DNA of 64,000 nucleotides. Origin: Paracoccaceae bacterium. Its GTDB lineage: Bacteria > Pseudomonadota > Alphaproteobacteria > Rhodobacterales > Rhodobacteraceae. Positions 7,318 to 26,125 of this stretch are shown here, piece after piece. The stretch covers positions 12,011-76,010 of the forward strand of contig JANNNU010000127.1 of assembly GCA_031398695.1 (NCBI GenBank), written 5' to 3'. The translations under genes and the position numbers were made by a program. Numbering within the stretch: position 1 is the first letter of the stretch; each line of letters starts with the position of its first letter. The notes beneath the pieces are model-generated. The model searched no databases. It saw nothing but the letters and a program-made list of their open reading frames with translations, and was not told the origin of the DNA.

Positions 7318-7328
7318 GGTCTGTCCTT

Positions 7329-8637: not shown

Positions 8638-9576
8638 CTAGCGCGCTCCGATGGCGTCGGCCACCGCTAGCAGGTTACGCGCCATCTTTTCCGATGCGGC
8701 GTCGATCATCTTGCCGTCGAGGCTGGCCGCGCCCTTGCCCTGCGCCTCGGCGGTTTTCAGTTCCTCCAGGATGCGGCGGGCCTTCACGACTTCGGCTTCG
8801 GTCGGGCTGAACACCTCGTTGGCAAGCGCGATCTGACTGGGGTGGATCGCCCATTTGCCTTCGCAGCCCAGCGCCGCGGCCCGCCGTGCACCATCCTTGT
8901 AACCTTCGGGATCAGAAAAATCGCCGAACGGGCCGTCGATGGCGCGCAAGCCATAGGCGCGGCAGGCGGTGACCATGCGGCTGATCGCGGCATGCCATTG
9001 GTCGCCCGGGTAATGCGGGTTCAGGCCGCCGATGTTGGTGGTGCGCGACCGCATCGAGGCGGCAAAGTCAGCCACCCCGAAATGCAGCGCCTCGAGCCGC
9101 CCGCCGAACTGCGCGATGGCCTCGACATTCGCCATGCCCAGCGCCGTCTCGATCAGCGCTTCGAGCATGACCTTCGACGTCAGGCCGCGCCCCTGCTCGA
9201 TCTGGTTCACCATCGCCTCGACCATGTAAAGGTCGGCGGGCACCCCGACCTTCGGCACCAGCAGCGTGTGCACCCGGCTGCCGGCCTGTTCCATCACGTC
9301 GACCACGTCACGGTACATGTAGTGCGTGTCGAGCCCGTTGATCCGCACCGAAACCGTCTTGCCCTTGGCGGCCCAGTTGATGTCGTTCAGCGCCTGGATG
9401 CAGTTTTTCCGCGCCTGTTCCTTTTCGGGCGGGGCAACCGCGTCTTCCAGATCGAGAAACACATAGTCGGCAGGCCCGTCCGCCGCCTTGTCGATCATCG
9501 TCGGGTTCGACGCTGGCACGGCCAGTTCGGACCGTTGCAGGCGCTGTTTGCGCAAAGGGTGCAAGGTGTGGCTCAT
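8638..9576 (-). CDS. mcl: L-malyl-CoA/beta-methylmalyl-CoA lyase (HpcH/HpaI-CitE family)
   Basis: 312 aa. [37 protein letters not shown] and [17 protein letters not shown] match MclA-type malyl-CoA lyases. Confidence 0.85.
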
Positions 9577-9589
9577 CGAGCGATCCTTT

Positions 9590-10792: not shown

Positions 10793-10869
10793 GTCGCCTC
10801 CCCGCGCCACAGTGGCTTAGGGTCGTCATGTCATTCCGTTGCGCCGATGCAAAATGAAAGCGGGTTGTG

Positions 10870-10916
10870 CTGTAACTGCGAGAATTTACAGAAGGCCAAT
10901 TATGTAATATTGTAAT
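10870..10916. promoter_or_regulatory. candidate operator: four TGTAA/TTACA half-sites in the AT-rich sga/regulator divergent region
   Basis: Inverted repeat CTGTAA (10870-10875) / TTACAG (10886-10891), plus direct TGTAAT at 10903-10908 and 10911-10916. This is the lowest-GC stretch of the intergenic region. Confidence 0.3.
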
Positions 10917-10946
10917 GATAACAAACCCGAGATTGTGTACGCCTGC

Positions 10947-12347
10947 ATGCAGAAAACCTTCATCGGACCGCACTTGCGCCGCCTGCGGGCGGACAAAGGC
11001 CAGACCCAAGGCCAGATGGCCAAGGCGTTGGGCGTATCGCCCACCTATGTCAACCTGATGGAAAGTAACCAAAGATCGGTGTCGGTGGCGATATTGCTGC
11101 GGCTGTTCGAGGTGTACGGCGTCGACTGGCGCGACATCTCGCAAGACGACGACGTGGTGCATCTGGCCGATCTGAAGACGGTGATGCAGGACCCGCTGTT
11201 CGGGCCGGAAAAGCCCGACCTGCAACAGATGCGCGCCGCGCTGGTGCACAGCCCGGCCCTGGTGCAGGCGATGTTGCAGTTGCACCGCGCGTATCAATCC
11301 GCCGCCGATCTGGCGCTCAGCCTCGCCGAAGGCGGCACGGCCCCGGTCGACAGCACCACCCCGGACGCGGCCGTGCACAATTGCTTTCGCCGAAACCGCA
11401 ACCATTTTCGCGCGCTGGAAACCGCGGCCGAAGGATTTTGGGGCGGGGCGCCGCCCGAACGGGACGAGATTTATATCGCGCTCAAGCAGCACCTGCGCGC
11501 GTCGCTGGGCATCACGGTGCGGCTGGTGGCGGTGCGTGACCTGCCCGGCGCGCTGCGGCAGTACGACGAGGCGCGGCGCGAGATCCTGCTGTCCGAGGCG
11601 CTGGACCACACCAACCGCATCTTCCAGTTGGTCCATATGGCGGGATTGCTGGCGCACAAGCGGGTGCTCGACGATCTGATCGCGCAATCGGGGCTGGACC
11701 AGCAGCGCGCGGTGTCGCGGCTGCGAGTCGAGTTGGCCAACTATTTCGCCGCCGCCGTGCTGATGCCCTATGACGCCTTTCTGGCCGAGGCGCGGGCGAC
11801 GAAATACGACCTCGACCACCTCGCCACCCGGTTCGGCGTCAGTTTCGAGCAGGCCTGCCACCGCGCGACCACCCTGCAACGCGAAGGCGCGCAGGGGGTG
11901 CCGTTCTTTTTCCTGCGCATCGACAAGGGCGGCAACGTGACCAAGCGGTTCAACGCGACCAGCTTTCATCTGGCCGAATATGGCGGGGCCTGTCCGCGGC
12001 TGGACGTGCACACCAGTTTCCGCATGCCGGGCCGGATCATTCCGCAATTCGTCGAAATGCCGGATGCCAGCCGGTATTTCGTGTTTTCGCGCACGGTGGA
12101 CCGCCCCACGTTCGAACGCCATGGGCAGGACAACCGGCTGGCCGTCGCGATGGGGTGCGCGTTTTCCGATGCGGCCCAGATCGGCTACGCCGAAGCCTAT
12201 CAGCTGGCCGAGGCGCAGATGACCAAGATCGGCATCAACTGCCGGATCTGCCCGCGCGGCGATTGTGACCAGCGCGCGCATCAGGCCGCCCTGCGGGTGC
12301 AGCCGGTCGATGAAAAACGGCGCGGGGCCACGCGGTTCGACACGTAG
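10947..12347 (+). CDS. XRE-type HTH regulator with ImmA/IrrE-like peptidase and DUF2083-like domains (ScfR/RamB/PrpR short-chain acyl-CoA regulator family)
   Basis: The N-terminus LRRLRADKGQTQGQMAKALGVSPTYVNLMESNQRSVS is a Cro/C1 HTH, followed by a long C-terminal domain with a Cys cluster (CPRLDVH...CRICPRGDCDQRAH). ATG at 10947; the track start at 10935 is GTG. Confidence 0.75.
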   Translation: MQKTFIGPHLRRLRADKGQTQGQMAKALGVSPTYVNLMESNQRSVSVAILLRLFEVYGVDWRDISQDDDVVHLADLKTVMQDPLFGPEKPDLQQMRAALVHSPALVQAMLQLHRAYQSAADLALSLAEGGTAPVDSTTPDAAVHNCFRRNRNHFRALETAAEGFWGGAPPERDEIYIALKQHLRASLGITVRLVAVRDLPGALRQYDEARREILLSEALDHTNRIFQLVHMAGLLAHKRVLDDLIAQSGLDQQRAVSRLRVELANYFAAAVLMPYDAFLAEARATKYDLDHLATRFGVSFEQACHRATTLQREGAQGVPFFFLRIDKGGNVTKRFNATSFHLAEYGGACPRLDVHTSFRMPGRIIPQFVEMPDASRYFVFSRTVDRPTFERHGQDNRLAVAMGCAFSDAAQIGYAEAYQLAEAQMTKIGINCRICPRGDCDQRAHQAALRVQPVDEKRRGATRFDT

Positions 12348-12373: not shown

Positions 12374-14379
12374 CTACCGACCCGCACGCGGGCTGTCGCC
12401 TGCACTCCACCGGCGATAGGGGCGCGATGGCGGGCCGTAATCGGTCTCGACCGCAACCCGACGGCCGACGCCGCCGATCAGATCGGGAATCAGCGTCACC
12501 AGCTCGATCAGGCCTGCGTGGCCCAGCGAGCGCAAGGCGACGGGTCCGGGATACAGGGTTTCGGTCGGGATGCCTTCGGTAAACACGATCTCGTGCCGGT
12601 CGCACAGGACATGCACATAGGTGACGGTCTGCGCCTTTTCGTCGATCCGAAGGGCCGGACGGCTCCAGGCTTGCACCAGATGCTTGGCGCGGACCAGCGC
12701 GCCGTTGACCAGAAAGCCGTGCTGCGGCGACACGCGGGTCGTCCGACCGTTGCCAAGCGCGCCCTTGCGCAGCATCACGGGCCGCAGATCGGGCCGTGCC
12801 GCAAGATCGGCAGCGTCCAGCGTGCGGCATCCGACCCAGCGGACCGGCTGATCGCCATGATCCAGCGTGCGCACCCGGTGACCGGGGCGCAACCGTTCGA
12901 CGGAAACCGGGCCTGCGTCCGTGGCGATCTGCACGCCGGGGGTGAAGCAGGGAATGCCTGCGGCGTTCAGCCTGCCCGGTGCCTGCGCCTGCACCGGACT
13001 GACGCCTTGCAGCGTGATCGTCTCGATACCCGGAAAGTTCAGCACCGCATTGCCGAACCCGTCATCGGTCACGACGATGTCGAACACCCGGACCGCCGAG
13101 CCGTTCGGGTTCTGCAGATCCGAAACGTCGAACTGGTCGTTGTTCAACCCGTCCCCGTCAGCATCCCCCAGATCGAAATCGGTGACGACATCGCGGCCCG
13201 ATCCGGTTTCGAAGCGAAACTTGTCGTTTCCCGCGCCGGCGTTGCCCGACAACTGCACCGCGGTCGTGTTGGCTGCGGCGTTCATCGTGTCGGTATAAGC
13301 GGTGCCGTAGACACCATCGTTCCCGGTAAAGTCACCCGAAGCATCGTTCATGCCGTTGAACCCGTAGGTGCCCGCGTCGTTTCCGGTGAAGGTCACGGTG
13401 ACGCCATCCGTGCCGATGTAGTTGCCGAACTCGATCCGGTCGAAGTCGCCGGTCTCTTCGCCGCCATAAGCCGAGTCGATCTGGTGATCCTCGCTGACCC
13501 ACATCACGTCATTGCCCGTGCCGCCGTAGACCTGATCCTTGCCTGTCCCGCCGGACAGCTGATCATTGCCCGCGTCGCCGTGGACCTGGTCTTTGCCACC
13601 GGCACTGATCAGAGTGTCATCGCCGTCGCCGCCATACACCGTGTCGTCGCCGCCATAGGTGTTCCAGTCGCCAAACCGGTCGTGGCCCGCCCCGACAAAG
13701 AATTGTTCGTTGCCATCGCCCCCCGAGGCGCTGTCGGCGCCGTCACCGGCATAGATCGCATCGTTGCCGCCGCCCGCGGCGACCGTGTCGTTGCCGGACC
13801 CGGCGGTGATACTATAAATGCCGGTCGAAATCTGGTCGCCCTGCGCGTCGGTATACCCAACCGCCATCGAATTCGCCCCGGCGGTTCCATCCACCATGGC
13901 CTTGAAATCGCCCGCAACCCGGTCCGCCTACATGTCGCCGCTGTTGCTCACGACACTGTTCAGCGTCAGCGACTGGATGGGCTTTGCGGTCAGTGCCACC
14001 TGATCGGCGTTGTTCGTCTCTTCCGGAACCAGATACGTGTTACCATTCACGTCCTGCATGACGGTGGCGGGATGACGGCGGTGGTGCCGTCTTCATAGGT
14101 GATGGTGGCGTTGCAGGTCGCCACGGCGTCGAAATTCTGCGGCGTGACGCCGTTGATCCGGAACTAGTCGAAGCCACCGCCATTGTCGGTGTCATAGCTG
14201 GCGTTGTCTTCCTCGCTCATCCGATCGGCCGTCAGGTTGCGGACGTTGCTGCTGAGCGGGGCCGTGCTGGAGCCGTGTGTGCCCAGCAGGACGCCCGCGT
14301 TTTAGGCGACTTCATTGTTCTGGGTCGGGTCGATCTTGGTCAGCGTTCCCAGAAAGATGACTTCGTAACTGGTCGCCAT
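12374..14379 (-). pseudogene. RTX calcium-binding repeat + C-terminal Hint (Hedgehog/intein-like) domain protein, 5' region disrupted
   Basis: The minus strand ATG at 14379 opens MATSYEVIFLGTLTKIDPTQNNEVA*NAGVLLG... Four lesions follow: an in-frame TAA (14304-14302), a TAG (14166-14164), a frame change near 14066-14073, and a TAG (13930-13928). After them comes the intact 507-codon ORF 13897-12374, with GGxGxD nonapeptides and the Hint motif CFTPGVQIATDAGPVSVERLRPGHRVRTLDHG. Confidence 0.8.
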
Positions 14380-14597: not shown

Positions 14598-15680
14598 CTA
14601 TCGCACCTTCAGCGTGGCCAGTCCGATCATCGCGAGGATCAGGCTGATGATCCAGAATCGGATCACGATCTGCGGTTCTGCCCAGCCCTTCTTTTCGAAA
14701 TGGTGATGGATCGGTGCCATCAGAAACACCCGCTTGCCGGTGCGCTTGAAATACAGCACCTGGATGATGACCGACAGCGCCTCGACGACGAACAGGCCAC
14801 CGACGATGGCAAGGACGATCTCGTGCTTGGTGCAGACGGCGATCGCCCCGAGGGCACCCCCAAGGGCAAGGCTGCCGGTGTCGCCCATGAACACCGCTGC
14901 TGGGGGTGCGTTGTACCACAAAAAACCCAGCCCGCCGCCGAACAGGGCCGCCGCGAACACCAGCAACTCGCCGGTGCCCGGCACGAAGTGCACGCCAAGG
15001 TAGTCGGCAAAGTTCGCGTTGCCGACCACATAGGAAATCACGCCCAGCGTGCCGCCCGCGATCATCACCGGCATGATGGCAAGCCCGTCGAGCCCATCGG
15101 TCAGGTTCACGGCATTGGCCGACCCGACGATCACCACCATCCCGAACGGAACGAAGAAGATCCCGAGGTTGACGAGAAGGTTTTTGAACAGCGGCAAGGC
15201 CAGCTGGTGCGTCAGCTCGACCGGATGAAAGCTGGCGGCAGCATAGGCGGCAAGCCCCGCGATCCCCAGACCGGCGATGAACCGGACGCGCGACGAGACG
15301 CCCTTGGTGGTCTGCTTGGTCACCTTGGCATAGTCGTCGGCAAAGCCGATCAACCCGAACGCCAGCGTCACCAGCAGCACGATCCACACGTAAGGCGTGT
15401 CGAGCCGGGCCCAGACCAAAGTCGAAAACACCAGCGCCGACAGGATCAGCAGCCCGCCCATTGTCGGGGTTCCAGCCTTGACGAAATGGCTGGCGGGACC
15501 GTCGTCGCGGATCGGCTGGCCCTTGCCCTGCTTGCGGCGCAACAGGTCAATCAGGGGGCGGCCAAAGATGAATCCGAACACCAGCGCGGTCAGAAAGGCG
15601 GCCCCGGCGCGAAAGGTGATGTAGCGAAACAGGTTGAAAAAATCGCCCCCCGCAGAGAACTCGGTCAGCCAGTACAACAT
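14598..15680 (-). CDS. mraY: phospho-N-acetylmuramoyl-pentapeptide transferase
   Basis: 360-aa polytopic protein with a canonical MraY sequence (MLYWLTEF...[10 protein letters not shown]...HHHFE), in dcw context. Confidence 0.95.
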
Positions 15681-17123
15681 TCACGCCTCTCCTTGGGCAT
15701 TGGTCGGGCCGCCGTGCCCCAATTTTCGCAGGGCGTCAACGACAAGACTGACTTTGATCCCTTTGGACCCCTTGACCAGAACGATGTCGCCCGCGTCGAT
15801 CAGGCTTCGCGCGCGGGCGGCCAGATCGGCGGCGGTGTCGGTGTGTTCGCCGCGCTGGCGCAGCGGCAGGGTCTGCCAAAGCGCGCGCATCCGCGGTCCG
15901 ACGCAGTGGATGCGGTCGATCGCGGCAAGGCCGGGGTGGCGGGCAATGGCGCGGTGCAGGTCGATCTCGGTCGGTCCAAGTTCCAGCATGTCGCCCAGGA
16001 TGGCGATGCGACGACCCGCGCCGATGCTGCCCTGGTTGTCGTCCGGTTCGGCGGCGATCAGCACATCGAGGCTGGCGGCCATCGAGGTAGGGTTTGCGTT
16101 GAACGCATCGTCGATCAGGTCGAACGAGGTTTCGTCCACTACATCCAGAACCACACGCTCGCGCGTGCCGCGCCCGGTGGGGGGCGTCCAGTTGCCGATG
16201 TCGTTGGCCGCGATGGCGGCATCGAGGCCCAGCGCATCGGCGCAGGCGAGCGCTGCCAGCGCGTTGGCGGCAAAGTGCCGGCCCGGAGAGCGCACCTTGA
16301 ACAGAAGGGGCGTGCCGTGGCGCGTCGCCTGCACGATGGTGGTGTCGTCGGTCAGGGTGATGGTGACGATGCGGTAATCGGCCGAGGCAGCCGCGCCGAA
16401 CGTCTGCGCGCGGGCACCAGTGGCCGCAGCCCTGTCGGTCAGGATCGCGGCCTCTGCGATGTCGGCGGGCAGAATGGCGGTGCCGCCCGGCTCCAGCCCG
16501 TCAACGATCGCGGCCTTTTCGCGCGCGATGTCCGTCACGCTGGCGAACGCCTCCAGATGCGCCGCGCCGACGGTGGTGATCAGCGCGACATGGGGGCGGG
16601 CCAGGCGCGCCAGCGGGGCAATCTCGCCGGGGTGGTTCATGCCGATCTCGATCACCGCAAATTGGGTGTCGGGGGGCATCCGCGCCAGCGTCAGCGGCAC
16701 GCCCCAGTGGTTGTTGTAGCTCGCCTCGGCGGCATGGGTGTGGCCTTGGCCCTGCAGGATGGCGCGCAGCATTTCCTTGGTCGAGGTCTTCCCGACCGAT
16801 CCGGTGACGCCCACGACCTTCGCCTGCGACCGGGCCCGCGCGAACCGCCCGAGATCGGCCAGCGCCGCCAGCACATCGGGCACGATCAGCAGCGCAGCGT
16901 CCTTGGCGACACCATCCGGAACGCGGCTGACCAGCGCGGCGGCGGCGCCCTTGGCCAGCGCGGCCGCCACGAAATCGTGGCCGTCGCGCACGTCCGTCAG
17001 TGCGACGAACAGATCGCCGGGCTGCAACGTGCGGGTGTCGATCGAAACGCCGCTTGCGGTCCAGGCCCGCGTGCTGCGACCCGCTGTCGCCGTTGCAGCG
17101 TCTGCCGAGGTCCACAACATCAC
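15681..17123 (-). CDS. murF: UDP-N-acetylmuramoyl-tripeptide--D-alanyl-D-alanine ligase
   Basis: Mur ligase with P-loop VGVTGSVGKTSTKE, positioned between murE and mraY. Confidence 0.9.
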   Translation of the reverse strand: MMLWTSADAATATAGRSTRAWTASGVSIDTRTLQPGDLFVALTDVRDGHDFVAAALAKGAAAALVSRVPDGVAKDAALLIVPDVLAALADLGRFARARSQAKVVGVTGSVGKTSTKEMLRAILQGQGHTHAAEASYNNHWGVPLTLARMPPDTQFAVIEIGMNHPGEIAPLARLARPHVALITTVGAAHLEAFASVTDIAREKAAIVDGLEPGGTAILPADIAEAAILTDRAAATGARAQTFGAAASADYRIVTITLTDDTTIVQATRHGTPLLFKVRSPGRHFAANALAALACADALGLDAAIAANDIGNWTPPTGRGTRERVVLDVVDETSFDLIDDAFNANPTSMAASLDVLIAAEPDDNQGSIGAGRRIAILGDMLELGPTEIDLHRAIARHPGLAAIDRIHCVGPRMRALWQTLPLRQRGEHTDTAADLAARARSLIDAGDIVLVKGSKGIKVSLVVDALRKLGHGGPTNAQGEA

Positions 17124-18601
17124 AGCATCCCGTCCAGCGCCGCGACCGCGATGCTGGCCTGTTCCACATCGTCGAACGGATAGGTCTGGCCGGCGATGGT
17201 CTGGCCGGATTCGTGTCCCTTGCCCGCAATCAGCAGCGCGTCGCCGGGTCCCAGTGCATCGACCCCCATCAGGATCGCCTCAGCGCGGTCGCCCACCTCG
17301 TTCGCGTCGGGGCAGGCGGCCAGGATCGCGGCGCGGATGGTGGCCGGATCCTCGGACCGGGGGTTGTCGTCGCTGACGAACAGAACGTCGGCATGCGCCG
17401 CCGCCGCCTGCCCCATCAACGGCCGCTTGCCCCGGTCGCGGTCGCCGCCCGCACCGAAAACGATGACGATCCGACCCATGACATGCGGGCGCAGCGCCTT
17501 CAGCGCCGTGGCGATGGCGTCGGGGGTGTGGGCATAGTCGACATAGACCGCGGCCCCGTTGGCCCGCTTGGCGGCCAGTTGCATCCGGCCGCGCACCCCG
17601 GTCAGTTGCGGCAGCACGCGCATCACGTCGGCCGGAACCTCGCCCGCCGCGATCACCAGACCGGCGGCCAGCGCCACGTTCTCGGCCTGAAAGCCGCCGA
17701 CGAGGTTGAGGTGCACCTGATGCGCCGTGCCCTTCCACAGAAACCGCACGTCCTGCCCGGTGGCATCGAAGCGTTGGCCCGCGATCTGCAGATCGGTCCC
17801 CTGACCCGGCCCCACGCTCAGCAGCGTCTGGCCCCGCGCGACGGCGACCATCGCCATGTCGTGCCCGCGCGGGTCGGCCATGTTGATCACCGCCGTGCCA
17901 TCCTCGGGCAGAACGCGGTCGAACAGGGCGGCCTTGGCGGTGAAGTAGGCCTCGAACGTGCCGTGATAGTCGAGGTGGTCCTGAGTGAAGTTGGTGAAAC
18001 CGGCCGCCTTGAGGCGCACGCCATCGAGACGACGCTGGTCGAGGCCGTGGCTCGAAGCCTCCATCGCTGCATGGGTTACGCCGGCGGCGGCGGCCTCGGC
18101 CAGCATCGCGTGCAGGGTGATCGGGTCGGGGGTGGTATGGGCGCTCGGGGCCTCCCACGCGCCCTCGATGCCGGTCGTGCCGATGTTGATCGCGGCATGG
18201 CCAAGGGCAGTCCAGATCTGGCGGGCAAAGGTGGCGACCGAGGTCTTGCCGTTGGTGCCGGTGACGGCCACCATCGTGCCGGGTTGGCGGACGGACCACA
18301 ACGAGGCGGCGCGGGCCAAGGCCTCGCGCGGGTCTTCGGCGATGACCACGGCCACGTCCGAAGTGCGCAGCACGTCCGCCGCGAGTACAGACCCCCGCGC
18401 ATCGGTCAGGATCGCCGCCGCGCCTTTCGCGATGGCCACATCGACAAAGGCCGCCCCATGCACCGTGCTGCCCGGAAGAGCCGCAAAAAGAAACCCCGGA
18501 CGCACCTGACGGCTGTCGACCGCCAGCCCGGTGACGGCGGCCAGCCGCCCCGACCGGGCGGTCAGGCCCAGATCGGCGAGTGATTTCTGCGCTGCGGCCA
18601 T
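17120..18601 (-). CDS. murE: UDP-N-acetylmuramoyl-L-alanyl-D-glutamate--2,6-diaminopimelate ligase
   Basis: Mur ligase (VAVTGTNGKTS) with a DNPR motif (SDDNPRSEDP). Its end overlaps the murF start by 4 nt. Confidence 0.9.
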   Translation of the reverse strand: MAAAQKSLADLGLTARSGRLAAVTGLAVDSRQVRPGFLFAALPGSTVHGAAFVDVAIAKGAAAILTDARGSVLAADVLRTSDVAVVIAEDPREALARAASLWSVRQPGTMVAVTGTNGKTSVATFARQIWTALGHAAINIGTTGIEGAWEAPSAHTTPDPITLHAMLAEAAAAGVTHAAMEASSHGLDQRRLDGVRLKAAGFTNFTQDHLDYHGTFEAYFTAKAALFDRVLPEDGTAVINMADPRGHDMAMVAVARGQTLLSVGPGQGTDLQIAGQRFDATGQDVRFLWKGTAHQVHLNLVGGFQAENVALAAGLVIAAGEVPADVMRVLPQLTGVRGRMQLAAKRANGAAVYVDYAHTPDAIATALKALRPHVMGRIVIVFGAGGDRDRGKRPLMGQAAAAHADVLFVSDDNPRSEDPATIRAAILAACPDANEVGDRAEAILMGVDALGPGDALLIAGKGHESGQTIAGQTYPFDDVEQASIAVAALDGML

Positions 18602-18610
18602 GCCATCCCC

Positions 18611-20404
18611 CTACTGCTTGACGGCTGTTAAGGCATCCAGCGGGGCAAGTTCAACCTGTGGCCGCAGACCCAGAAGCGGGGCGGTGCGGCGGATGATCTC
18701 GGCGGCGACCGGCACGGCCGTCCAGCCAGCGGTGCGGCGCGGTTTAGGTCCAGTGGTTTCCACCGGTTCGTCCAGCGACACGATCAGAACATAGGCCGGG
18801 TCGTTGGCCGGAAAGACCGACGCGAAGGTGTTGATCACCTTGTCGTCGTAATAGCCGCCGCCACGACGCGGCTTGTCGGCGGTGCCGGTCTTGCCCGCGA
18901 CGGCATAGCCCGGCACCTCGCCAAAGCTGGCAGTGCCGTCGGTGACCACACGGCGCAGCATGGCGGTGGCCGCAGCGGACGCCTGTGCGCCAAGGACACG
19001 CTGTTGCGGCGGGCGCGTGGTGCCCTGCAGCAGGGTCGGCGTCACCTTGAATCCGCCATTGGCGATGGTGGCGTATGCGGCGGCGAGGTTCAGCGGGCTG
19101 GACGACATGCCGTGGCCGTAGCTGGCGGTGATCGTCACGATGTCGGGCCATTTCGGCGGCAGCAACGGCTTGACCTTGGGGGCCTCGGCCAATTCGACCG
19201 GCGAAGGGTCCATCAGGCCAAGCGCGCGCAGGAACGCCTGCTGTCGTTCGCCGCCGATCATCAGCGCGATATGCGCGGTGCCGACGTTCGAGGATTTTGC
19301 GATGATATCGGACACCGACAGCAGCGGGCCGTAGTTCTTGCCTTCGAATTCCTTGATCTTGTGCTTGCCCCAATACATCGGCGCATTGGCATCGACCATG
19401 GTTTCTGGCCCGACAAGGCCAAGGTCCATGCCTTGGGCGGCCGCGAATATCTTGAACGTGGACCCCAGTTCGTAAAGCCCCTGCACCGCGCGGTTGAATA
19501 GCGGGCTGTCGCCGGGTTCGGCATCCTTGGGCAGGATCGGGTTGGGGCGGTCGTTGGGATCAAAGGTGGGATAGGACGCCAGCGCCACGATTTCACCCGT
19601 ATGCACGTCCATCAGGATGCCTGCGGCCCCCTTGGCGTTCATCATCACCATGCCGGTCGACAGGATCTCTTCCATCGCAGCCTGCACGGTCAGGTCGATC
19701 GACAGTGTCAGCGGCGTGGTGGCCTGGGCGGGGTCGCGCAGGCGGGTGTCCATCGCAAGCTCGATCCCGGCCGTCCCGATCACCTCGGCCGAGCGCACGG
19801 ATTCGTCACCGAACGCCGCCCCGCCCAGCACGTGCGCGGCCAGGGTGCCGTTGGGGTAAAGCCGCATTTCGCGCGGGCCGAACAGCAGGCCGGGATCACC
19901 TATGTCATGCACCGCCTGCATCTGTTCGGGCGACAGCACCCGGCGCAACCACATGAAACTGCGCCCGTCCTTGAAGCGGCGTTCCAGATCGGGTGCCTTC
20001 ATCTCGGGGAAGATCGCCGCCAGTTGGGCCGCAGTGCCCGCCGGGTCGATCATGTCCTTGGGATGGGCATAAAGCGCGTGGGTCAGCATGTTGGTGGCCA
20101 GCACCCGGCCATTGCGGTCGAGGATGTCGGCGCGGGTCGCGCTGACCTCGGCCCCGGCCCCGGCGCGGCGCGGTTCGGTCGGGACCGAGGCCGCCAGCGT
20201 GCCCATCTGCAATCCGATGGTGGAGAAAGCCGCGATGAACCCCGCCGACAGCATCAAAAGCCGCAACTGCGCGCGGGTGCGGGCGCGGTCGCGGGTGACC
20301 TCGTTGCGCAGACGCAAGTTCTCGCGTTCGATGCCGTCGGGGTTTTCGCCCTTGGCGCGGGCTTGCAGGATACGGGCCAGCGGGCGCAGAGGGGTGCGGG
20401 TCAT
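18611..20404 (-). CDS. ftsI: peptidoglycan D,D-transpeptidase (PBP3)
   Basis: 597 aa with an N-terminal TM segment, a PBP dimerisation domain and a transpeptidase domain with STFK, SSN and KTGT motifs. Confidence 0.9.
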   Translation of the reverse strand: MTRTPLRPLARILQARAKGENPDGIERENLRLRNEVTRDRARTRAQLRLLMLSAGFIAAFSTIGLQMGTLAASVPTEPRRAGAGAEVSATRADILDRNGRVLATNMLTHALYAHPKDMIDPAGTAAQLAAIFPEMKAPDLERRFKDGRSFMWLRRVLSPEQMQAVHDIGDPGLLFGPREMRLYPNGTLAAHVLGGAAFGDESVRSAEVIGTAGIELAMDTRLRDPAQATTPLTLSIDLTVQAAMEEILSTGMVMMNAKGAAGILMDVHTGEIVALASYPTFDPNDRPNPILPKDAEPGDSPLFNRAVQGLYELGSTFKIFAAAQGMDLGLVGPETMVDANAPMYWGKHKIKEFEGKNYGPLLSVSDIIAKSSNVGTAHIALMIGGERQQAFLRALGLMDPSPVELAEAPKVKPLLPPKWPDIVTITASYGHGMSSSPLNLAAAYATIANGGFKVTPTLLQGTTRPPQQRVLGAQASAAATAMLRRVVTDGTASFGEVPGYAVAGKTGTADKPRRGGGYYDDKVINTFASVFPANDPAYVLIVSLDEPVETTGPKPRRTAGWTAVPVAAEIIRRTAPLLGLRPQVELAPLDALTAVKQ

Positions 20405-20763
20405 GGAACGCCTTCCTGTGTCCCGATAACATCGACCGGGTTCGCGATCTCGGGGATGCTTTCATAAAGCGCGGGCGGCAGCGGGTAGGCGACCTGCGCC
20501 GCGGTGCCCAGCTGGTGCGGCTCCAGCGGCAGCAGACCCAGCGCGTCGAAGTTCAGCGTGACCAGTTCGCGCAGGCGCTGGGGGCGGTTCAGGTAGGCCC
20601 ACTCCGCCCGCTGGATTGCCAGCGCGTCCTGCAAGGCGTCAATGCGATGCTCAAGCGCGTTGCGGTCGCGGATGGCCTGTTGCGTCGCGTAGTTCTCGCG
20701 GTAGGCCCAGAAGGCGAGCGCCATCACGGCAAGGGTGCTGGCGATGTAAAGCAGCGCACGCAT
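20401..20763 (-). CDS. ftsL: cell division protein FtsL-like
   Basis: 120-aa bitopic coiled-coil protein between rsmH and ftsI. ATGA overlap with ftsI. Confidence 0.7.
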   Translation of the reverse strand: MRALLYIASTLAVMALAFWAYRENYATQQAIRDRNALEHRIDALQDALAIQRAEWAYLNRPQRLRELVTLNFDALGLLPLEPHQLGTAAQVAYPLPPALYESIPEIANPVDVIGTQEGVP

Positions 20764-20765
20764 GG

Positions 20766-21776
20766 TCAGCGTCGTCCTTTCCGTAGTTTCTCGGGCAGCA
20801 CCGGCACCCCCAGCGCCGCGTCGTCGGCGCGACCGGCGGGGGCTGCGGTGCGAAAGCCCACGCGCAACTTGGCCGAACGCGACCGGGGGTTTTCGGCAAG
20901 TTCGGCCTCGTCCGCGGTCACGGCACGCTTGGTCTTCAAGGTAAAGCGCGGCGCATCCTCGGCGCGTTCGGGGGCATAACGGTTCGTATTCGCCTCGCCC
21001 CCCGAACGCAGCTGGAAAAACCGTTTGACGATGCGGTCTTCCAGACTGTGGAACGTGACGACTGCCAGCGCGCCGCCCGGTTTCAAGGCGCGCTCTGCCG
21101 CGGCAAGGCCTGCGGCCAGTTCGGCAAATTCGGTGTTCACCGCGATGCGGATGGCCTGGAAGGCACGGGTGGCCGGGTGACTTTGACCCGGTTTGGGCCG
21201 GGGCAGCACGGACGAGATCACGTCGGACAGGCGCAGGGTGGTGATGATCGGGTCGATGGCGCGCGCCCGGACGATGGCGGCGCTGATCCGGCGCGAGGCG
21301 TGATCCTCGCCGTAAGCATAGATGATGTTGGCAAGGGTTTCCTCATCCGCGCCGTTCACCAGATCGGCCGCCGATGAACCGTCCTGCGACATCCGCATGT
21401 CGAGCGGCCCGTCCTTCTGAAACGAGAATCCCCGCTCCGGTTGATCGAGCTGCATCGACGACACCCCAAGGTCCAGCACGACGCCGTCGAGCGGCGCATA
21501 TGCCGCCAGGTCCGAAAAGGTGCCGTGGACAAGGTTCAGGCGATCACCGAACCCGCCTGCCCAGGACGCGGCCATGTCAAGCGCCTGCGGGTCGCGGTCG
21601 ATGCCGATCACCCTGTCCGCCCCCGCGTCCAGCAAGCCGCGCGCATAGCCGCCCGCGCCGAACGTGCCGTCCAGCCAGATGCCCGTAACAGGCGCTACAG
21701 CGGCTAGCAGCGGGCGCAACAGCACCGGAACGTGGGGGATGCGACCGGGCTCGGGATCGCCAACGGTCACGGTCAC
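20766..21776 (-). CDS. rsmH: 16S rRNA (cytosine1402-N4)-methyltransferase
   Basis: HVPVLL...[10 protein letters not shown]...[11 protein letters not shown] are MraW/RsmH signatures. Overlaps the mraZ stop. Confidence 0.92.
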
Positions 21777-22294
21777 CGTCCCGTTTTGTACTTGCTGACG
21801 CGCACAAGAGGATCTTCGTCGTCTTCCTCTTCCTCGTCGTCCATCGCGGCGAGTTCGGCGGCAAGAACCTCTTGGCGATACAGCTTGAACCGGTTCGACA
21901 CCCCGGCAAAGCTGGCCATCCCGCCCTTTTCCAGATCGTCGCCGACAAAGCCCATCTTTTCGCGCACAGGCGGCGGCAGCACGATGCGGCCGTCGTCGTC
22001 GATCTCGACCGTCGCCGACAGCATGATCAGGTCACGTTCCGCGCGCAGACGGTCTTTCGACCCCATCGGCATCGCATCGACCTCGGCGGCCAGCACCTCG
22101 GCCCCGGCAACGGTATAACATTCTACGAAATTGCGGGTCTTGCCGCCATAGACCATGACAATGCGGGTTTTCGGTGCATCGGCGGTCACGGGATCTTCGA
22201 GGTCAAGCTTGCGGCGGAGGGCGGCGGGGATCGAGACCCGTGCCTTGCTGTCCACTTTCTGGTGGAAGGTCCCTCTGAACGCCTCGGTTGACAT
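21773..22294 (-). CDS. mraZ: transcriptional regulator MraZ
   Basis: [25 protein letters not shown] and a second SpoVT/AbrB-like repeat ([16 protein letters not shown]). First gene of the dcw cluster. AAGGAG lies upstream of the ATG. Confidence 0.9.
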
Positions 22295-22333
22295 GGGCCT
22301 TTCGGCTCCTTAAGTTTTAGTCGTAAAACCCTG

Positions 22334-22382
22334 CAATAAAAGGGAATAGGCGGATCGGGCTGCTGCCACTGCCCGATCCGCC
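22334..22382 (-). terminator. intrinsic terminator inside the mraZ leader
   Basis: Perfect 12-bp stem GGCGGATCGGGC / GCCCGATCCGCC (22349-22360 / 22371-22382) with a 10-nt loop. On the minus strand it is followed by TATTCCCTTTTATT (22348-22334), about 40 nt before the mraZ ATG. Confidence 0.6.
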
Positions 22383-22556
22383 ACTGTCCCGTCTCCGGGC
22401 GTCCATGCACACGCGCCACCTGGGGGAGATGCTGCTCGCCCGCGTGCCGGATCTCTTAAACTTCGATGGGACGGCTGCCTGTATGAGCCTGTCTTTTTGT
22501 TCGCCTGTTCGGGGTCTTCGGCCGCCCCTGCCTTATTTTCCGTCCCATCGTTCGTG
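22334..22556 (-). ncRNA. UpsM-like leader-derived sRNA (5' leader of the dcw operon); 5' end is only estimated
   Basis: The 3' end is the leader terminator above. An 11-nt perfect inverted repeat (22464-22474 / 22540-22550) can close an internal domain. No ORF is present. Size and position match what I recall for R. sphaeroides UpsM upstream of mraZ. Confidence 0.5.
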
Positions 22557-22561
22557 AGAAA

Positions 22562-22606
22562 AGGGATGCCATGGGATCACATGGTAATCAATGGAAAAAT
22601 TTGGAC
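22562..22606. promoter_or_regulatory. five direct repeats with exact 10-bp phasing (candidate MraZ operator / dcw promoter region)
   Basis: The plus strand reads AAGGGATGCC ATGGGATCAC ATGGTAATCA ATGGAAAAAT TTGGAC. GG recurs at 22563, 22573, 22583, 22593 and 22603. A possible -35 TTGATT lies on the minus strand at 22591-22586. Confidence 0.4.
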
Positions 22607-22965
22607 AGAGGGTGCGAAATCTTGTGTGACACATCTCTGTTACGCAGCATCTGGTGTCCGCGATGCCCAGATATAGGCAAATTTCAGCCTTCACGCGGGC
22701 GTGACCGCTAGATGTTGTTTGGGGGAATTCTCGAGCCTACGACGGCTCCGGCCGAAAGAACTTCCAGAACGTGTTTCGTCCTGCGCCCACTGACGCGCCC
22801 ATGCGCCGAGAATCGGCAGAAACCCAGACTTTCGCCTCGGTTTTCCCAGTTCATCCCATGAAAAGTGATTCGCCGCAGACGCCGTCCCATCCAATCCCAG
22901 ACCACTGACCTGTCAGGCCCGCCGGGATCGGTCGCGCCGGGTTGCCCCGCGCGTGTCGGCCGCGA

Positions 22966-24033
22966 TCAGGCCATCCCGCCCGCAACCAGTCGCGCGGCGA
23001 GACGGGCATAGGCGTCGGCGATCGGCCCTTGCCCCGCGGCGATCGGAACCCCCGCATCGCCGGCCAGCCGCACGTCCAGCGACAGCGGAATTTCCCCAAG
23101 AAACGGCAGGTCCAGCTTGGCCGCCTCGGCCGCCACGCCGCCGTGGCCAAAGATGTGGGCCTCGTGACCGCAGTTGGGGCAGATGTAGGTCGACATGTTT
23201 TCCACCAGCCCCAGCACCGGCGTCTTGAGCTTGACGAACATGTCGAGCGCCTTGCGCGCGTCCAGCAGCGCCACGTCCTGCGGGGTGGAAATCACGATCG
23301 CTCCGGTCAGTTGCGTGCGCTGGCACAGGGTCAACTGAATGTCGCCGGTGCCGGGCGGCAGATCGACGATCAGGATGTCGAGCCGCCCCCAGTCCACCTG
23401 CGTGATCAGTTGTTGCAGCGCGCCCATGATCATGGGGCCGCGCCAGATCACCGCTTCGTCTTCTTTCAGCATCAGGCCGATCGACATCAGCGTGACGCCA
23501 TGCGCGTGCAGCGGCTCGATCGTCTTGCCGTCGGGGGACGCCGGACGCTTGCTGACGCCCATCATGCGCGGCTGGCTCGGGCCATAGATGTCGGCATCCA
23601 GCAGCCCCACGCGGCGGCCCTGCCGCGCAAGCGCCACGGCGAGGTTCGAGGCCAGCGTCGACTTGCCGACACCGCCTTTGCCGGAGGCGATGGCAATGAT
23701 GCGGTCCACGCCGGTGACGCGCTGCGGGCCGCCCTGCTGCGGGGTCGGATGCTGACCGATCTTCAGGCTGGGGGCTTTTTGCGCCGGGCCATGCGCGGTC
23801 ATCACCACCTGAACGCCCGAAACGCCCGGCAGCGCCCGCAAGGCGGCCTCGGCAGCCGCCTGTGCCGGAGCGAGCGCACGGGCGGCCTCTGCATCGGGCG
23901 CCTCGATCACAAAGCGCACCTGACCATCCTCGACCGACACGGCACGAATCAGGTCCGCCGCGATCAGCGACCGCCCGTCCGGCGTAGAGATCCGGGACAG
24001 AACCCCGGTCACGTCGTCGCGCGTCACGGACAT
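22966..24033 (-). CDS. apbC: Fe-S cluster carrier ATPase (Mrp/ApbC/NBP35 family)
   Basis: N-terminal DUF59-like domain, deviant Walker [13 protein letters not shown] and a CPNCGH motif. Start at ATG 24033, preceded by GGAG. The track start at 24105 is an extension. Confidence 0.9.
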
Positions 24034-24199
24034 CGGTTTCTCCTTCGCATCGGTTTTGTGCAAGGTTGTGCGGATTGACACAAAGGGCAAGGGCTGCTTT
24101 ACCAAACGCTCAAAAATTCAGCGAAGCGCCTGTTTTTCTTGAAATATTTGTAAACAAGAGCCATGCGGTCGCTGCATGGCAGCAATGCGGTGCAGATCA

Positions 24200-24228
24200 T
24201 TGTGCAATCGCAGCAATTGGCCCATGTT
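24200..24228 (+). promoter_or_regulatory. candidate heat-shock-sigma (RpoH-type) promoter for the DUF1127/CcsR transcript
   Basis: TTGTGC (24200-24205), a 15-nt spacer, then CCCATGTT (24221-24228). This resembles the sigma-32 -10 element CCCCATNT and lies about 75 nt upstream of the ATG at 24302. An alternative is CTTGAAA at 24138-24144 with CCATGC at 24161-24166. Confidence 0.3.
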
Positions 24229-24301
24229 TGCCCTAACAGAACAGCAGGACTGTCCGGAACGATCCGGCGCGCTGATCTGAGAAAAGAATGTGAGGCTGAG
24301 A

Positions 24302-24517
24302 ATGGCATATGTGAACAGCACCCGTGTGGGCACCAATGGTCTGGCAGATCGCTTTGCCGCGATCGTCAAGGCAATTCGGCTGGCGGCACAGCGTCGGGCG
24401 ATCTACGATCGGACCGTGCGCGAACTGAACGGGCTGACCAACCGCGAATTGGCGGACCTGGGCATCGCCCGGTTGAACATCGAAGACGTGGCACGCGCCG
24501 CGGCTTACGGAAAATAA
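24302..24517 (+). CDS. ccaF1: small DUF1127-domain protein (CcaF1-like RNA-binding protein)
   Basis: 71 codons, MAYVNSTRVG...RELNGLTNRELADLGIARLNIEDVARAAAYGK, with the typical DUF1127 C-terminal pattern. Immediately followed by the CcsR-type sRNA array. Confidence 0.8.
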   Translation: MAYVNSTRVGTNGLADRFAAIVKAIRLAAQRRAIYDRTVRELNGLTNRELADLGIARLNIEDVARAAAYGK

Positions 24518-24526
24518 GGTTTTTGT

Positions 24527-24603
24527 CCGGCCTCCACCTCCTCCCGGGGGCCCATGACAAGCGCGGCGGTGCTTTTCCTCCTCCCTGGCGCCGCCGCTTT
24601 TTC
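24527..24603 (+). ncRNA. ccsR1: CcsR-type (cuckoo family) sRNA unit 1
   Basis: Two hairpins with CCTCCTCCC in the loops (24537-24545 and 24577-24585). Stems are 24529-24535/24546-24552 and 24563-24572/24588-24597. A T5 run lies at 24598-24602. Confidence 0.75.
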
Positions 24604-24632
24604 TACCGGACTGCTGGGTCCGGTTTCAGTTT

Positions 24633-24703
24633 GGTCGCCCCTTCCTCCTCCCTGGGGTGATCAGATCAGCGGCGGCCCTATCCTCCTCCCGGGGTCGCCG
24701 CGC
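24633..24703 (+). ncRNA. ccsR2: CcsR-type sRNA unit 2
   Basis: Loops CCTCCTCCC at 24644-24652 and 24682-24690. Stems are TCGCCCC/GGGGTGA and GCGGCGGCCC/GGGGTCGCCGC. Confidence 0.75.
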
Positions 24704-24740
24704 AAAAATCGGGGTTTGCGAGCCCTGAACGACGTTTGAG

Positions 24741-24817
24741 CGGCCCCTCCTCCTCCCTGGGCCGGTCAGATCAGCGGCGGCCCCCTCCTCCTCCCTGGGG
24801 TCGCCGCGCAGGTTTTA
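24741..24817 (+). ncRNA. ccsR3: CcsR-type sRNA unit 3
   Basis: Loops CCTCCTCCC at 24749-24757 and 24787-24795. Stems are CGGCCC/GGGCCG and GCGGCGGCCCC/GGGGTCGCCGC. A TTTT run lies at 24813-24816. Confidence 0.75.
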
Positions 24818-24847
24818 GGGGACAGTGTGCCCCACATGGTGTTTGAG

Positions 24848-24916
24848 CGGTCTCCTCCTCCTCCCTGAGGCCGATCAAATCAGCGGCGACCCCCTCCTCC
24901 TCCCTGGGGTCGCCGC
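24848..24916 (+). ncRNA. ccsR4: CcsR-type sRNA unit 4
   Basis: Loops CCTCCTCCC at 24857-24865 and 24896-24904. The second stem is a perfect 11-bp pairing, GCGGCGACCCC/GGGGTCGCCGC (24883-24893/24906-24916). Confidence 0.75.
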
Positions 24917-24979
24917 GCCCCTCTCCCCTTGCAGGCCGCAGATCGCCCGATAGGGTAGAGTGAGCACCGGGGGCGGCAG

Positions 24980-26125
24980 ATGCGCATTTCCATGATTTCG
25001 GCAGCCCTCGTGGCGGCGCTCGTTGGCTACGGCAGTACGATTGCGCTCTTGCTGTCGGCGGCGGCGGCGGTCGGGGCCACACCGGCGCAGACCGCGAGCT
25101 GGGTGCTGGCGATCAGCCTGGCCAAGGCGGCAGGCTCGGCCGGCCTTAGCCTCGCGACCCGGGTGCCGGTGGTGCTGGCGTGGTCGACCGCTGGTGCGGC
25201 GCTGATCGCGGCGACCGAGGGCGTCACGATGGCCGAGGCGGTCGGGGCGTTCGTGCTGGCGGGCGGGCTGGTCGCGCTGACGGCGGTGGTGCGCCCGTTG
25301 GGGCGCGCGGTCGCGGCAATCCCAGACGGGGTCGCAGCCGCGATGCTGGCAGGGGTCCTGCTGCCCTTTTGCCTCAAGGGCGCGGTCGCGACGCAAACGC
25401 TGCCGCTGGTTGTGTTGCCGATGGTCGCGGTGTTTGCGGTGGTGCGGTTGCGCAATCCGGCCGTGGCGGTGCTGGCGTCGCTGGCGTTGGGCCTGATCGC
25501 GGCATTCTCCTTTGGGCTGGCGCAATGGCCCGCGCTGTCGTGGCCCGTGCCGGTTCTGACGCTGATCGTGCCGGCGTTTCGGATCGAGGTTCTGGCCGGC
25601 CTTGGACTGCCGCTCTATCTCGTCACCATGGCGTCGCAAAACCTGCCCGGCTTCGCGATTCTGCGCGCAGCCGGATACGAGCCGCCGGTGCGGCCGGCGC
25701 TGCTGACGACCGGGGCCTTGTCGGCGCTGTCTGGGCTGTTCGGTGCCCACACCACCAGCATGGCAGCGATCACCGCGGCGATCTGCCTGGGCGACGACGT
25801 GCATCCCGACCGCGATCAACGCTGGAAGGTGGGACTGGCCTACGGCGGGTTTTGGGTGGCACTGGGGCTTTTGAGCCCGGTGATCCTGCCGCTGCTGGCT
25901 GCCTTGCCCGCCGCGTTGATGACCGGACTGGTGGCGCTGGCGTTGCTCGGCCCGCTGATGGGGGCGCTGACCGGGGCGTTCATGCCGCCAGCCACCCGTT
26001 TTGCCGCCGTCATGACGCTGGCCGTCACCGGATCCGGCGTTTCGGCCTTCGGCGTCGGCGCGGCGTTCTGGGGTCTTTTGGCCGGCTTGGCGGTGCAAGG
26101 GCTGACGCGCGCTGCGGCCCGCTAA
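24980..26125 (+). CDS. benE: benzoate/H+ symporter family membrane protein (BenE)
   Basis: 381-aa polytopic ORF, MRISMISAALVAALVGYGSTIALLL...; BenE-family features as I recall them. Confidence 0.75.
   Translation: MRISMISAALVAALVGYGSTIALLLSAAAAVGATPAQTASWVLAISLAKAAGSAGLSLATRVPVVLAWSTAGAALIAATEGVTMAEAVGAFVLAGGLVALTAVVRPLGRAVAAIPDGVAAAMLAGVLLPFCLKGAVATQTLPLVVLPMVAVFAVVRLRNPAVAVLASLALGLIAAFSFGLAQWPALSWPVPVLTLIVPAFRIEVLAGLGLPLYLVTMASQNLPGFAILRAAGYEPPVRPALLTTGALSALSGLFGAHTTSMAAITAAICLGDDVHPDRDQRWKVGLAYGGFWVALGLLSPVILPLLAALPAALMTGLVALALLGPLMGALTGAFMPPATRFAAVMTLAVTGSGVSAFGVGAAFWGLLAGLAVQGLTRAAAR

Follow-up and report, generated by a model that had tools for sequence, protein, structure and literature searches.

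What kind of element is the array of eight identical short motifs that follows a small DUF1127 gene in the stretch of DNA analyzed here (64 kb, hereafter the window)? An initial annotation proposed an orthologue of the ccaF1/CcsR1-4 locus, and each feature of the published locus that can be tested at the level of sequence is present. The reading as a CcsR locus is supported by a match to Rfam, the placement of the motifs in loops, covariation of the stems, the CIN1 gene order and an RpoH-type promoter. The locus is very likely a ccaF1-CcsR operon of the CIN1 type, carried by a Rhodobacter/Tabrizicola-like bacterium within the Rhodobacteraceae (Paracoccaceae). The ccaF1–CcsR "cuckoo" sRNA locus is an already described kind, and the window holds an ordinary copy of this Rhodobacter-type stress-response locus, one further instance of a family that is already curated in Rfam.

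The overall layout is a DUF1127 gene, four tandem two-hairpin units and benE, all on the + strand. The ccaF1-like gene (24302–24517) had been proposed as a 71-codon DUF1127-type ORF, and its 71-aa product indeed matches Pfam PF06568 over residues 26–60 (E 1.4e-9, 37.9 bits, cut-off 23.3). A GAGG Shine-Dalgarno sequence lies at 24292–24295, conserved in relatives as TGAGGCT (24291–24297). Homologues of 71 aa occur in Rhodobacter, Tabrizicola, Gemmobacter, Cypionkella and others, the closest genome by this protein being a Rhodobacter sp. MAG at 85% identity, and within the synteny-defined 71-aa family L42, L45, R48, L50, D52 and G54 are conserved. The length of the protein and the position of its domain match R. 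sphaeroides CcaF1 (PMC8034643); RSP_6037 is not among the matches listed by our protein searches with the single sequence and with a 26-sequence profile. We found no solved structure for the DUF1127 family.

The neighbors of the array also follow a conserved order of mrp (divergent), ccaF1, the CcsR array and benE. The upstream neighbor is an mrp/apbC-like Fe-S P-loop NTPase gene on the − strand (22966–24033; Pfam ParA/NUBPL, E 3e-97), which occupies this divergent, adjacent position in about 45 of 80 related loci. Downstream on the + strand lies benE, of the benzoate membrane transport family (24980–26125; Pfam BenE, E 2e-94), which corresponds to OG18 of PMC4615179. It is co-directional in 16 related loci, where it begins 53–158 nt past the array.

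The motif CCTCCTCCC occurs as eight exact copies in the 64-kb window, all on the + strand and none outside the array. Their first bases are 24537, 24577, 24644, 24682, 24749, 24787, 24857 and 24896, exactly as first reported, while 0.6 copies are expected by chance in dinucleotide shuffles and none of 100 shuffles reached eight. Spacing from motif to motif alternates (40/67/38/67/38/70/39 nt), which bears out the proposed division into four units, with periods of 107, 105 and 108 nt. Each unit has GUUU at its 5′ end and U-rich linkers lie between the units, a pattern consistent with maturation into individual sRNAs. A coding role for the array was considered and rejected: in agreement with the initial annotation, no ORF across 24518–24979 has coding-like composition or coding-like GC3, and none of the unit periods is divisible by 3.

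All eight motifs lie in hairpin loops rather than stems, both when the array is folded as a whole (446 nt, z −6.7) and when each of the four units is folded alone (z −3.5 to −5.3). Minimum free energy and centroid structures agree on this placement, for the array and for the single units alike; the motif loops measure 10–13 nt and the stems 7–13 bp. The stem arms quoted in the initial annotation are complementary (24529–24535/24546–24552, 24563–24572/24588–24597 and 24883–24893/24906–24916), with one G-U pair in each of the first two. A covariance model of our own collected 130 units from the window and 80 related loci in Rhodobacteraceae. All 130 share the orientation of the DUF1127 gene, and nearly all of them lie just 3′ of it. 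Across these units the stems covary while the loop motif is fixed. Stem cells are paired in 92.7% of cases, a fraction somewhat inflated by the fitting of the alignment to our own model, and double changes occur in 22 of 22 pairs. The covariation score of 0.63 compares with 0.23 for shuffled and at most 0.12 for slid alignments, and was reached in 0 of 500 shuffles.

A search with the curated model RF02791 (CcsR1), which had been suggested as a check, matches unit 1 above the gathering score and units 2–4 below it (43–48 bits vs 65.3, E 1.7e-10 to 4.7e-9). In relatives, likewise, only the first unit passes. Unit 1 (24519–24602, +) begins 1 nt past the stop codon of the DUF1127 ORF and scores 71.9 bits (fold z −4.9). 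Its motif loops lie at 24537–24545 and 24577–24585, and its second hairpin is followed by a terminator-like T5, confirmed at 24598–24602. Its sequence is 88–89% identical to the first units of the related loci L001 and L003. Unit 2 (24629–24706, +; motifs 24644 and 24682) scores 43.2 bits with RF02791 (E 4.7e-9, fold z −5.2) and 91.6 bits with our own covariance model R1. Unit 3 (24734–24812, +; motifs 24749 and 24787; 45.1 bits, E 1.3e-9, fold z −3.5) probably represents an additional copy of the terminal type of unit: its identity to unit 4 is 88%, and just three units are present in L001, the closest relative. Unit 4 (24841–24921, +; motifs 24857 and 24896; 48.1 bits, E 1.7e-10, fold z −5.3) shares 88–94% identity with the final units of L001 and L003, and its tail is C/U-rich (GCGCCCCUCUCCCCUU), without a U-tract. 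Each unit of the window pairs off with the unit at the same position in its nearest relatives. Among related loci generally, copy number varies between species from 2 to 7 or more units, and a T-run of at least four is found in 48% of first units vs 10% of middle units, and in 38% of last units.

Among the closest known systems is CcsR1-4 (RSs0680a-d)/ccaF1 (RSP_6037) of Rhodobacter (Cereibacter) sphaeroides 2.4.1, as judged from published descriptions and Rfam RF02791. Both loci have a 71-aa DUF1127 gene with four tandem two-hairpin RNAs downstream on its strand, and every loop of these RNAs bears CCUCCUCCC. They also share an RpoH-type promoter motif, and their precursors are of similar length (a predicted ~686 nt vs the described ~680 nt; PMC8034643). 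In unit 1, the 5′ loop contains CCGG, as in the CcsR1 consensus. The R. sphaeroides locus is described as having its own 3′ terminator (PMC8034643). Unlike this type locus, the window has a terminator-like U-tract after unit 1 and none after the fourth unit, where a terminator scan of 24917–24979 found no hairpin with a U-tract. A Rho-independent terminator at the 3′ end is a trait of the R. sphaeroides locus and is not defining for the cuckoo family.

In gene order, the locus matches CIN1 (Reinkensmeier and Giegerich, 2015; PMC4615179), a neighborhood in which a cuckoo cluster stands between OG1, the DUF1127 gene, and a benzoate transporter gene, the latter being the flank described for Rhodobacteraceae. 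The cluster is of the HP2-type "2222" kind seen in Rhodobacter, including R. capsulatus SB1003 and R. sphaeroides ATCC 17025 (PMC4615179), and from CIN1 as described there the window shows no difference of substance. The ar14/NfeR/SmelC397-type RNAs of Rhizobiales (RF02344) share the loop motif, modular hairpins and a DUF1127 neighbor; unlike the units of the window, however, an ar14 RNA bears the motif in three hairpins and is often found upstream of the DUF1127 gene. We rejected membership of ar14, as the window units score 41.5–46.6 bits against a gathering score of 58.8, with the third motif-bearing hairpin of the model absent and deleted in the alignments. The 6C RNA of Actinobacteria (RF01066) also has two hairpins with C-rich loops. 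This likeness is one of analogy only, since 6C RNA belongs to an unrelated lineage without a DUF1127 context and its match to the window is sub-threshold (20–31 bits vs 47).

Upstream of ccaF1, a candidate RpoH (sigma32)-type promoter lies at 24200–24227 (+), with a −35 element TTGTGCA (TTG at 24200–24202) and a −10 element CCCATGT (24221–24227). The geometry of TTG-N18-CCCATGT (TTG −36 to −34, A−12, T−9) is the same as in the RpoHI/II logos published for R. sphaeroides (PMC3441632). Of the 31 closest sequences, which comprise the window and L001–L030, 27 retain the pattern TTGTGCAG-N-TGCAGCA..CCCCATGT 82–106 nt ahead of the ATG, and the promoter motif recurs with a CCTATNT or CTTATGT −10 element in more distant Rhodobacteraceae. 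Transcription is predicted to start at ~24236, leaving a predicted 5′ UTR (24236–24301, +) that contains the Shine-Dalgarno sequence and has no significant structure (z −0.7 vs shuffles).

Adjoining this promoter is a conserved block (24160–24199, +), part of an almost invariant palindrome-rich region (24160–24219) that precedes and overlaps the promoter. It contains the palindromes CCATGC/GCATGG and TGCTGC-ATG-GCAGCA, along with GCAGCAAT, which is repeated at 24210, and it is nearly invariant in the 31-locus alignment, though the protein is 50–85% identical. Several other readings of this upstream region were rejected. The block folds as RNA no better than shuffles (z −0.8). A small upstream ORF (ATG 24176) has its frame broken by indels in a variable spacer among relatives. 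A sigma54 promoter in TGGCAGCATTG would have a GG-to-GC spacing 3 nt too short, and a Pho box formed by the direct repeats at 24138–24157 fails in that GTCA[CT] is not kept in the window's own sequence. A second upstream RpoH promoter (CTTGAAA 24138–24144/GCCATGC 24160–24166) has the right geometry, but is doubtful because the critical −35 TTG is ATG in many relatives.

Taken together with the R. sphaeroides work, these features suggest how the locus may function. An RpoH-family heat/oxidative-stress sigma factor would initiate transcription near 24236, as suggested by the conserved promoter motif, to produce a ~686-nt transcript that, as sequence and structure show, encodes the 71-aa DUF1127 RNA-binding protein CcaF1 and carries the four CcsR sRNAs in its 3′ UTR. 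By homology with R. sphaeroides, RNase E, aided by CcaF1, would then cut the U-rich single-stranded linkers to release sRNAs of ~80–105 nt, whose CCUCCUCCC loops would pair with GGAGG-type Shine-Dalgarno sequences of target mRNAs, an interaction that would lower translation or stability of the target. Stress induction and anti-Shine-Dalgarno regulation of targets are known for R. sphaeroides (PMC8034643; PMC8625941), and the expression, processing and targets of CcsR1-4 in the window organism are predicted by homology. The functions named in the initial annotation, namely anti-Shine-Dalgarno loops, binding and processing by CcaF1, and RpoHI/HII control, match the account in PMC8034643 and would apply here by homology.

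Could the hairpins instead act in cis? The array might consist of structural elements with no role in trans, such as stacked terminators or attenuators, REP-like palindromes, or an insulator separating ccaF1 from benE. The GC-rich hairpins do fill the intergenic region, unit 1 ends in T5, the first spacer hairpin is terminator-like, and copy number ranges from 2 to 7 or more across species, as in REP arrays. However, an invariant loop on covarying stems runs counter to the requirements of a terminator or REP, U-runs end just 10% of middle units, and the motif is found nowhere else in 64 kb, whereas REPs are dispersed. The homologous RNAs of R. sphaeroides were shown by experiment to be trans-acting sRNAs (PMC8034643), and we regard a purely cis-acting array as extremely improbable. 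It is also highly unlikely that the array serves mainly as the 5′ leader or regulatory region of benE, whether through read-through from the ccaF1 promoter or through control of benE by the hairpins. The short, co-directional arrangement with benE and the missing U-tract past unit 4 would fit such a leader, but benE appears to have a promoter of its own. A sigma70-like candidate lies at 24929–24956 (+; TTGCAG, 16-nt spacer, TAGGGT), and at least 15 related loci conserve CTTGCA-N16/17-(G)ATAGT in the interval from the last unit to the ATG of benE. In many relatives benE does not accompany the ccaF1-CcsR array, and the R. sphaeroides array ends in its own terminator (PMC8034643). Read-through into benE could occur as a side effect.

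A further alternative concerns how the RNAs work, in that they may chiefly be a sponge or platform that titrates CcaF1, or other factors that bind C-rich loops or Shine-Dalgarno sequences, rather than base-pairing regulators. Eight identical loops on one transcript would provide high avidity, and both CcsR1 and the CcsR1-4 precursor are bound by CcaF1 in vitro (PMC8034643). CUGG(C), similar to a Smaug recognition element, is frequent in the loops (PMC8034643), and in the window six of the eight motif copies are followed by CUGG. Against a sponge as the chief role, direct targeting of mRNAs in R. sphaeroides has been ascribed to the anti-Shine-Dalgarno loops (cited in PMC8034643 and PMC8625941), and we consider it unlikely. 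The two modes are not separated by sequence and are not mutually exclusive.

Returning to the ccaF1-CcsR operon itself, every spacer between units contains a small hairpin without the motif. Spacer hairpin 1 (24605–24624, +; ACCGGACU-GCUG-GGUCCGGU), which is followed by UUUCAGUUU, is a terminator-like match in the scan (dG −13.4, z −4.5); spacer hairpin 2 lies at 24709–24728 (+; dG −10.5, z −2.1), and spacer hairpin 3 at 24818–24833 (+) is weak (dG −7.2, z −0.3). In the Rhodobacter/Tabrizicola clade these hairpins are structurally conserved, often with a UUCG or GCAA tetraloop. Neither they nor the conserved upstream block are mentioned in the available parts of the literature on the cuckoo family. 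In our view, a possible role of the spacer hairpins is to protect 3′ ends or to position the cleavages, and CcsR1 may reach higher levels than CcsR2-4 because of the terminator-like tail of its unit.

We tentatively raise the idea, though it is less probable than not, that in the Rhodobacter/Tabrizicola clade the repeated module is more than the textbook two-hairpin sRNA. It draws on the linkers and spacer hairpins, the tail confined to unit 1, the lack of a terminal terminator and the palindrome-rich block (24160–24219). If true, it would imply a programmed stoichiometry (CcsR1 > CcsR2-4), defined signals for processing or 3′ protection, and a second, so far undescribed regulator of either the ccaF1 promoter or the divergent mrp gene. 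The spacer hairpins, the position-specific tail and the upstream block would refine a known system, not open a new one, and could guide work on precursor processing and regulation.

For annotation, the locus had been described as escaping ORF-based methods, and the four sRNAs are indeed missed in this way; even an Rfam scan at the gathering score, alongside ORF-based annotation, recovers at most one of the four. Proper annotation of the contig should gain ccaF1 and CcsR1-4. The serine-cycle-type module placed nearby by the initial annotation is present at 6421–10810, as identified at the level of Pfam, though 13.5–18 kb from the array and not 12 kb.

Judged from its sequence, the locus belongs to the CcsR/cuckoo family and has the canonical setting of CIN1, the published cuckoo RNA neighbourhood, in agreement with the initial annotation, which had read it as an orthologous locus. 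It contains a ccaF1-like open reading frame of 71 aa on the plus strand (24302-24517), which matches Pfam DUF1127 (PF06568) with an E-value of 1.4e-9 and whose start is backed by a TGAGGCT Shine-Dalgarno sequence and an MAYVN N-terminus, both conserved among relatives. Unit 1 of the RNA array begins one base after the stop codon of this frame. Eight exact plus-strand copies of the loop motif CCTCCTCCC lie between 24519 and 24921 (at 24537, 24577, 24644, 24682, 24749, 24787, 24857 and 24896), and no further copy is found on either strand of the 64-kb window; dinucleotide shuffles give an expectation of 0.6, and none of 100 reached a count of eight. The motifs are spaced by ∼39 nt and ∼68 nt in alternation, which makes four units whose periods are 107, 105 and 108 nt. 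The eight copies, alternating spacing and four units first described are borne out in full, as are the DUF1127-type 71-codon frame ahead of the array, the complementary arms of the quoted inverted-repeat stems, the T5 run ending unit 1 (24598-24602) and the absence of a credible ORF over the array, where no overlapping frame has coding-like composition.

When the 446-nt stretch was folded whole, 8/8 motifs lay in hairpin loops (z = -6.7, 100 shuffles). Folded singly, each unit forms two hairpins with 7-13 bp stems and 10-13 nt loops that contain the motif (z = -3.5 to -5.3), and both kinds of folding agree in placing the motifs in loops, not stems. The covariance-model search suggested in the initial annotation scored unit 1 at 71.9 bits with the Rfam CcsR1 model (RF02791), whose gathering score of 65.3 is thereby exceeded, and this unit retains the 5′ loop of the CcsR1 consensus with CCGG. 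At relaxed thresholds, units 4, 3 and 2 align with RF02791 over its full length, scoring 48.1, 45.1 and 43.2 bits (E-values from 1.7e-10 to 4.7e-9), while the ar14 (three-hairpin) and 6C (actinobacterial) models give only sub-threshold matches. The kind, architecture, synteny and taxonomic family are already described in the literature, and Rfam curates the RNA family; the sole practical gain is in annotation, where Rfam at its gathering score recovers the first of the four units alone, here as in the related loci L001-L003.

A DUF1127 protein scan, limited to one genome per species, yielded 80 related loci. The closest (L001) is from a Rhodobacter sp. MAG, with 85% identity in the DUF1127 protein, followed by Tabrizicola, Cypionkella, Pseudorhodobacter, Stagnihabitans and then more distant Rhodobacteraceae. 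Most loci carry 2 to 14 copies of CCTCCTCCC on the same strand within ∼20 nt 3′ of the DUF1127 gene. A covariance model that we built from the four window units recovered 130 units; every one has the orientation of the DUF1127 gene, and almost all sit directly 3′ of it. In their alignment, standard pairs fill 92.7% of cells, a fraction biased high because the alignment was fitted to the model, and both-side changes occur at 22/22 pairs. The covariation score is 0.63, compared with 0.23 for shuffled columns and ≤0.12 when the partner is slid, so that the gap to the slid controls is still large. Across units the stems drift and the loop motif is invariant, the pattern to be expected if a scaffold presents a functional single-stranded recognition sequence.

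Between genomes, the CcsR units match by position: unit 1 shares 88-89% identity with the first units of L001 and L003, unit 2 shares 86% with the second unit of L001, and unit 4 shares 88-94% with the last units of L001 and L003. Unit 3 is probably a recent extra copy, because its nearest matches are unit 4 (88%) and the last L003 unit (88%) and L001 has three units. Copy number and packing differ widely among close relatives (L006, L011, L012, L015, L019 and L020); some of these arrays pass the ar14 gathering score instead of that of CcsR1, and Cypionkella-type loci hold up to 12-14 motifs with ∼80-nt periods and lack the spacer hairpin.

The flanking genes are a divergent mrp/apbC-type Fe-S NTPase gene upstream (22966-24033, minus strand) and a co-directional benE downstream (24980-26125, plus strand), followed by a TauE-family gene. 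The order mrp (divergent)-ccaF1-CcsR array-benE is kept in 16 relatives, and mrp adjacency in ∼45 loci. This is the architecture of published Rhodobacteraceae cuckoo clusters, which lie between OG1, the DUF1127 gene of CIN1, and a benzoate transporter gene, comprise up to 9 two-hairpin RNAs and show a “2222” pattern in R. capsulatus SB1003 and R. sphaeroides ATCC 17025 (PMC4615179).

Going by homology to the R. sphaeroides system, stress-induced transcription would produce a ccaF1-CcsR1-4 precursor, RNase E would cut beside U residues at each unit's 5′ end, CcaF1 would bind CcsR1 and the precursor and modulate maturation, and the freed sRNAs would act on target mRNAs via their anti-Shine-Dalgarno loops (PMC8034643, PMC8625941). 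The sequence features of this proposed mechanism are present in the window, where every unit has GUUU at its 5′ end and the linkers are U-rich; its functional steps are predicted by homology.

We aligned the 220 nt upstream of the ATG from 31 loci and found ATTGTGCAG-N-TGCAGCA-N4-CCCCATGTT almost invariant; 27 of the 31 closest sequences (the window and L001-L030) have it 82-106 nt before the start codon. More distant genera have the motif again, with a CCTATNT- or CTTATGT-type -10. The candidate RpoH-type promoter in the window (TTG 24200-24202, CCCATGT 24221-24227, plus strand) has the geometry of the R. sphaeroides RpoHI/RpoHII promoters derived and tested by Dufour et al. (PMC3441632): with A24224 set as -12, TTG occupies -36 to -34 and T24227 is -9. 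The predicted transcription start is ∼24236, and a transcript that includes all of unit 4 would measure ∼686 nt, compared with “about 680 nt” for the R. sphaeroides precursor (PMC8034643). Conserved motif, geometry and precursor length give the RpoH promoter of the initial annotation good support at the level of sequence, dependence on the sigma factor being a prediction.

Upstream of the -35, 24160-24199 is near-invariant across genera in the 31 loci, though CcaF1 itself is only 50-60% identical. This block contains two palindromes, CCATGC/GCATGG and TGCTGC-ATG-GCAGCA, along with a repeated GCAGCAAT, folds no better as RNA than shuffles and matches no known regulator motif; it may serve as an operator through which ccaF1 or the divergent mrp is regulated. 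The palindrome-rich conservation extends into the promoter spacer (24203-24219), and AGCCATGC-N5-GCTGCATGGCAGCATTG is part of this conserved region as a whole. A second sigma32-like geometry lies upstream (CTTGAAA 24138/GCCATGC 24160), and its TTG is not conserved.

All sequence-testable defining features were found save the terminal terminator. CcsR4 of R. sphaeroides is depicted with a Rho-independent terminator behind it; unit 4 of the window has no U-tract there, and GCGCCCCUCUCCCCUU comes next. Across loci, a T-run of at least 4 follows hairpin 2 in 38% of last, 48% of first and 10% of middle units. A terminal terminator is a trait of one species' locus, not of the family. The 11-bp GC stem and U5 of window unit 1 resemble a leaky terminator.

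Each of the 55 short spacers between units (10-45 nt; window and relatives L001-L067) folds into a small hairpin that lacks the motif. UUCG or GCAA tetraloops are frequent in these hairpins, which have a U-rich linker ahead of them (mean ΔG -9.8 kcal/mol, mean z -2.0). Their structure is conserved and their stem sequences differ among loci; in the window they fold at 24605-24624, 24709-24728 and, weakly, 24818-24833 (plus strand). They may serve to shield 3′ ends or to set the sites of cleavage, and the CcsR/cuckoo literature consulted makes no mention of them. We think it less likely than not that the locus has an additional layer of processing signals together with a second regulator; if true, this would be of modest interest.

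Between the last unit and benE, relatives conserve a sigma70-like CTTGCA-N16/17-(G)ATAGT, represented in the window by TTGCAG (24929-24934), N16 and TAGGGT (24951-24956) on the plus strand. Because this element precedes it, benE probably has a promoter of its own; read-through could also occur.

Beyond mrp, the locus adjoins a dcw cell-division/cell-wall cluster (14598-22294, minus strand) with mraZ, rsmH/mraW, an ftsI-type PBP gene, two Mur ligase genes (murE/murF type), mraY and a small ftsL-like ORF that has no Pfam match. Upstream of mraZ (21773-22294), within 22295-22965 on the minus strand, a strong hairpin (GGCGGATCGGGC...GCCCGATCCGCC) followed by UAUUCCCUUUUAUU (∼22340-22384) sits about 55-90 nt ahead of the ATG and resembles the UpsM sRNA/long dcw 5′ leader of Rhodobacteraceae (PMC5089854); this region has no Rfam match. 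A suggested link of the array to the mtkAB/malyl-CoA lyase/aminotransferase module (6421-10810), which the initial annotation had called serine-cycle-type, found no support. At Pfam level, 6421-12347 encodes succinyl/malate-CoA ligase alpha and beta subunits, an HpcH/malyl-CoA-lyase-type aldolase, a class-V aminotransferase and a divergent ScfR-type regulator (HTH and M78 peptidase). Next to it, a 507-aa protein (12374-13897, minus strand) has RTX calcium-binding repeats and, at its C terminus, a Hint_2 domain.
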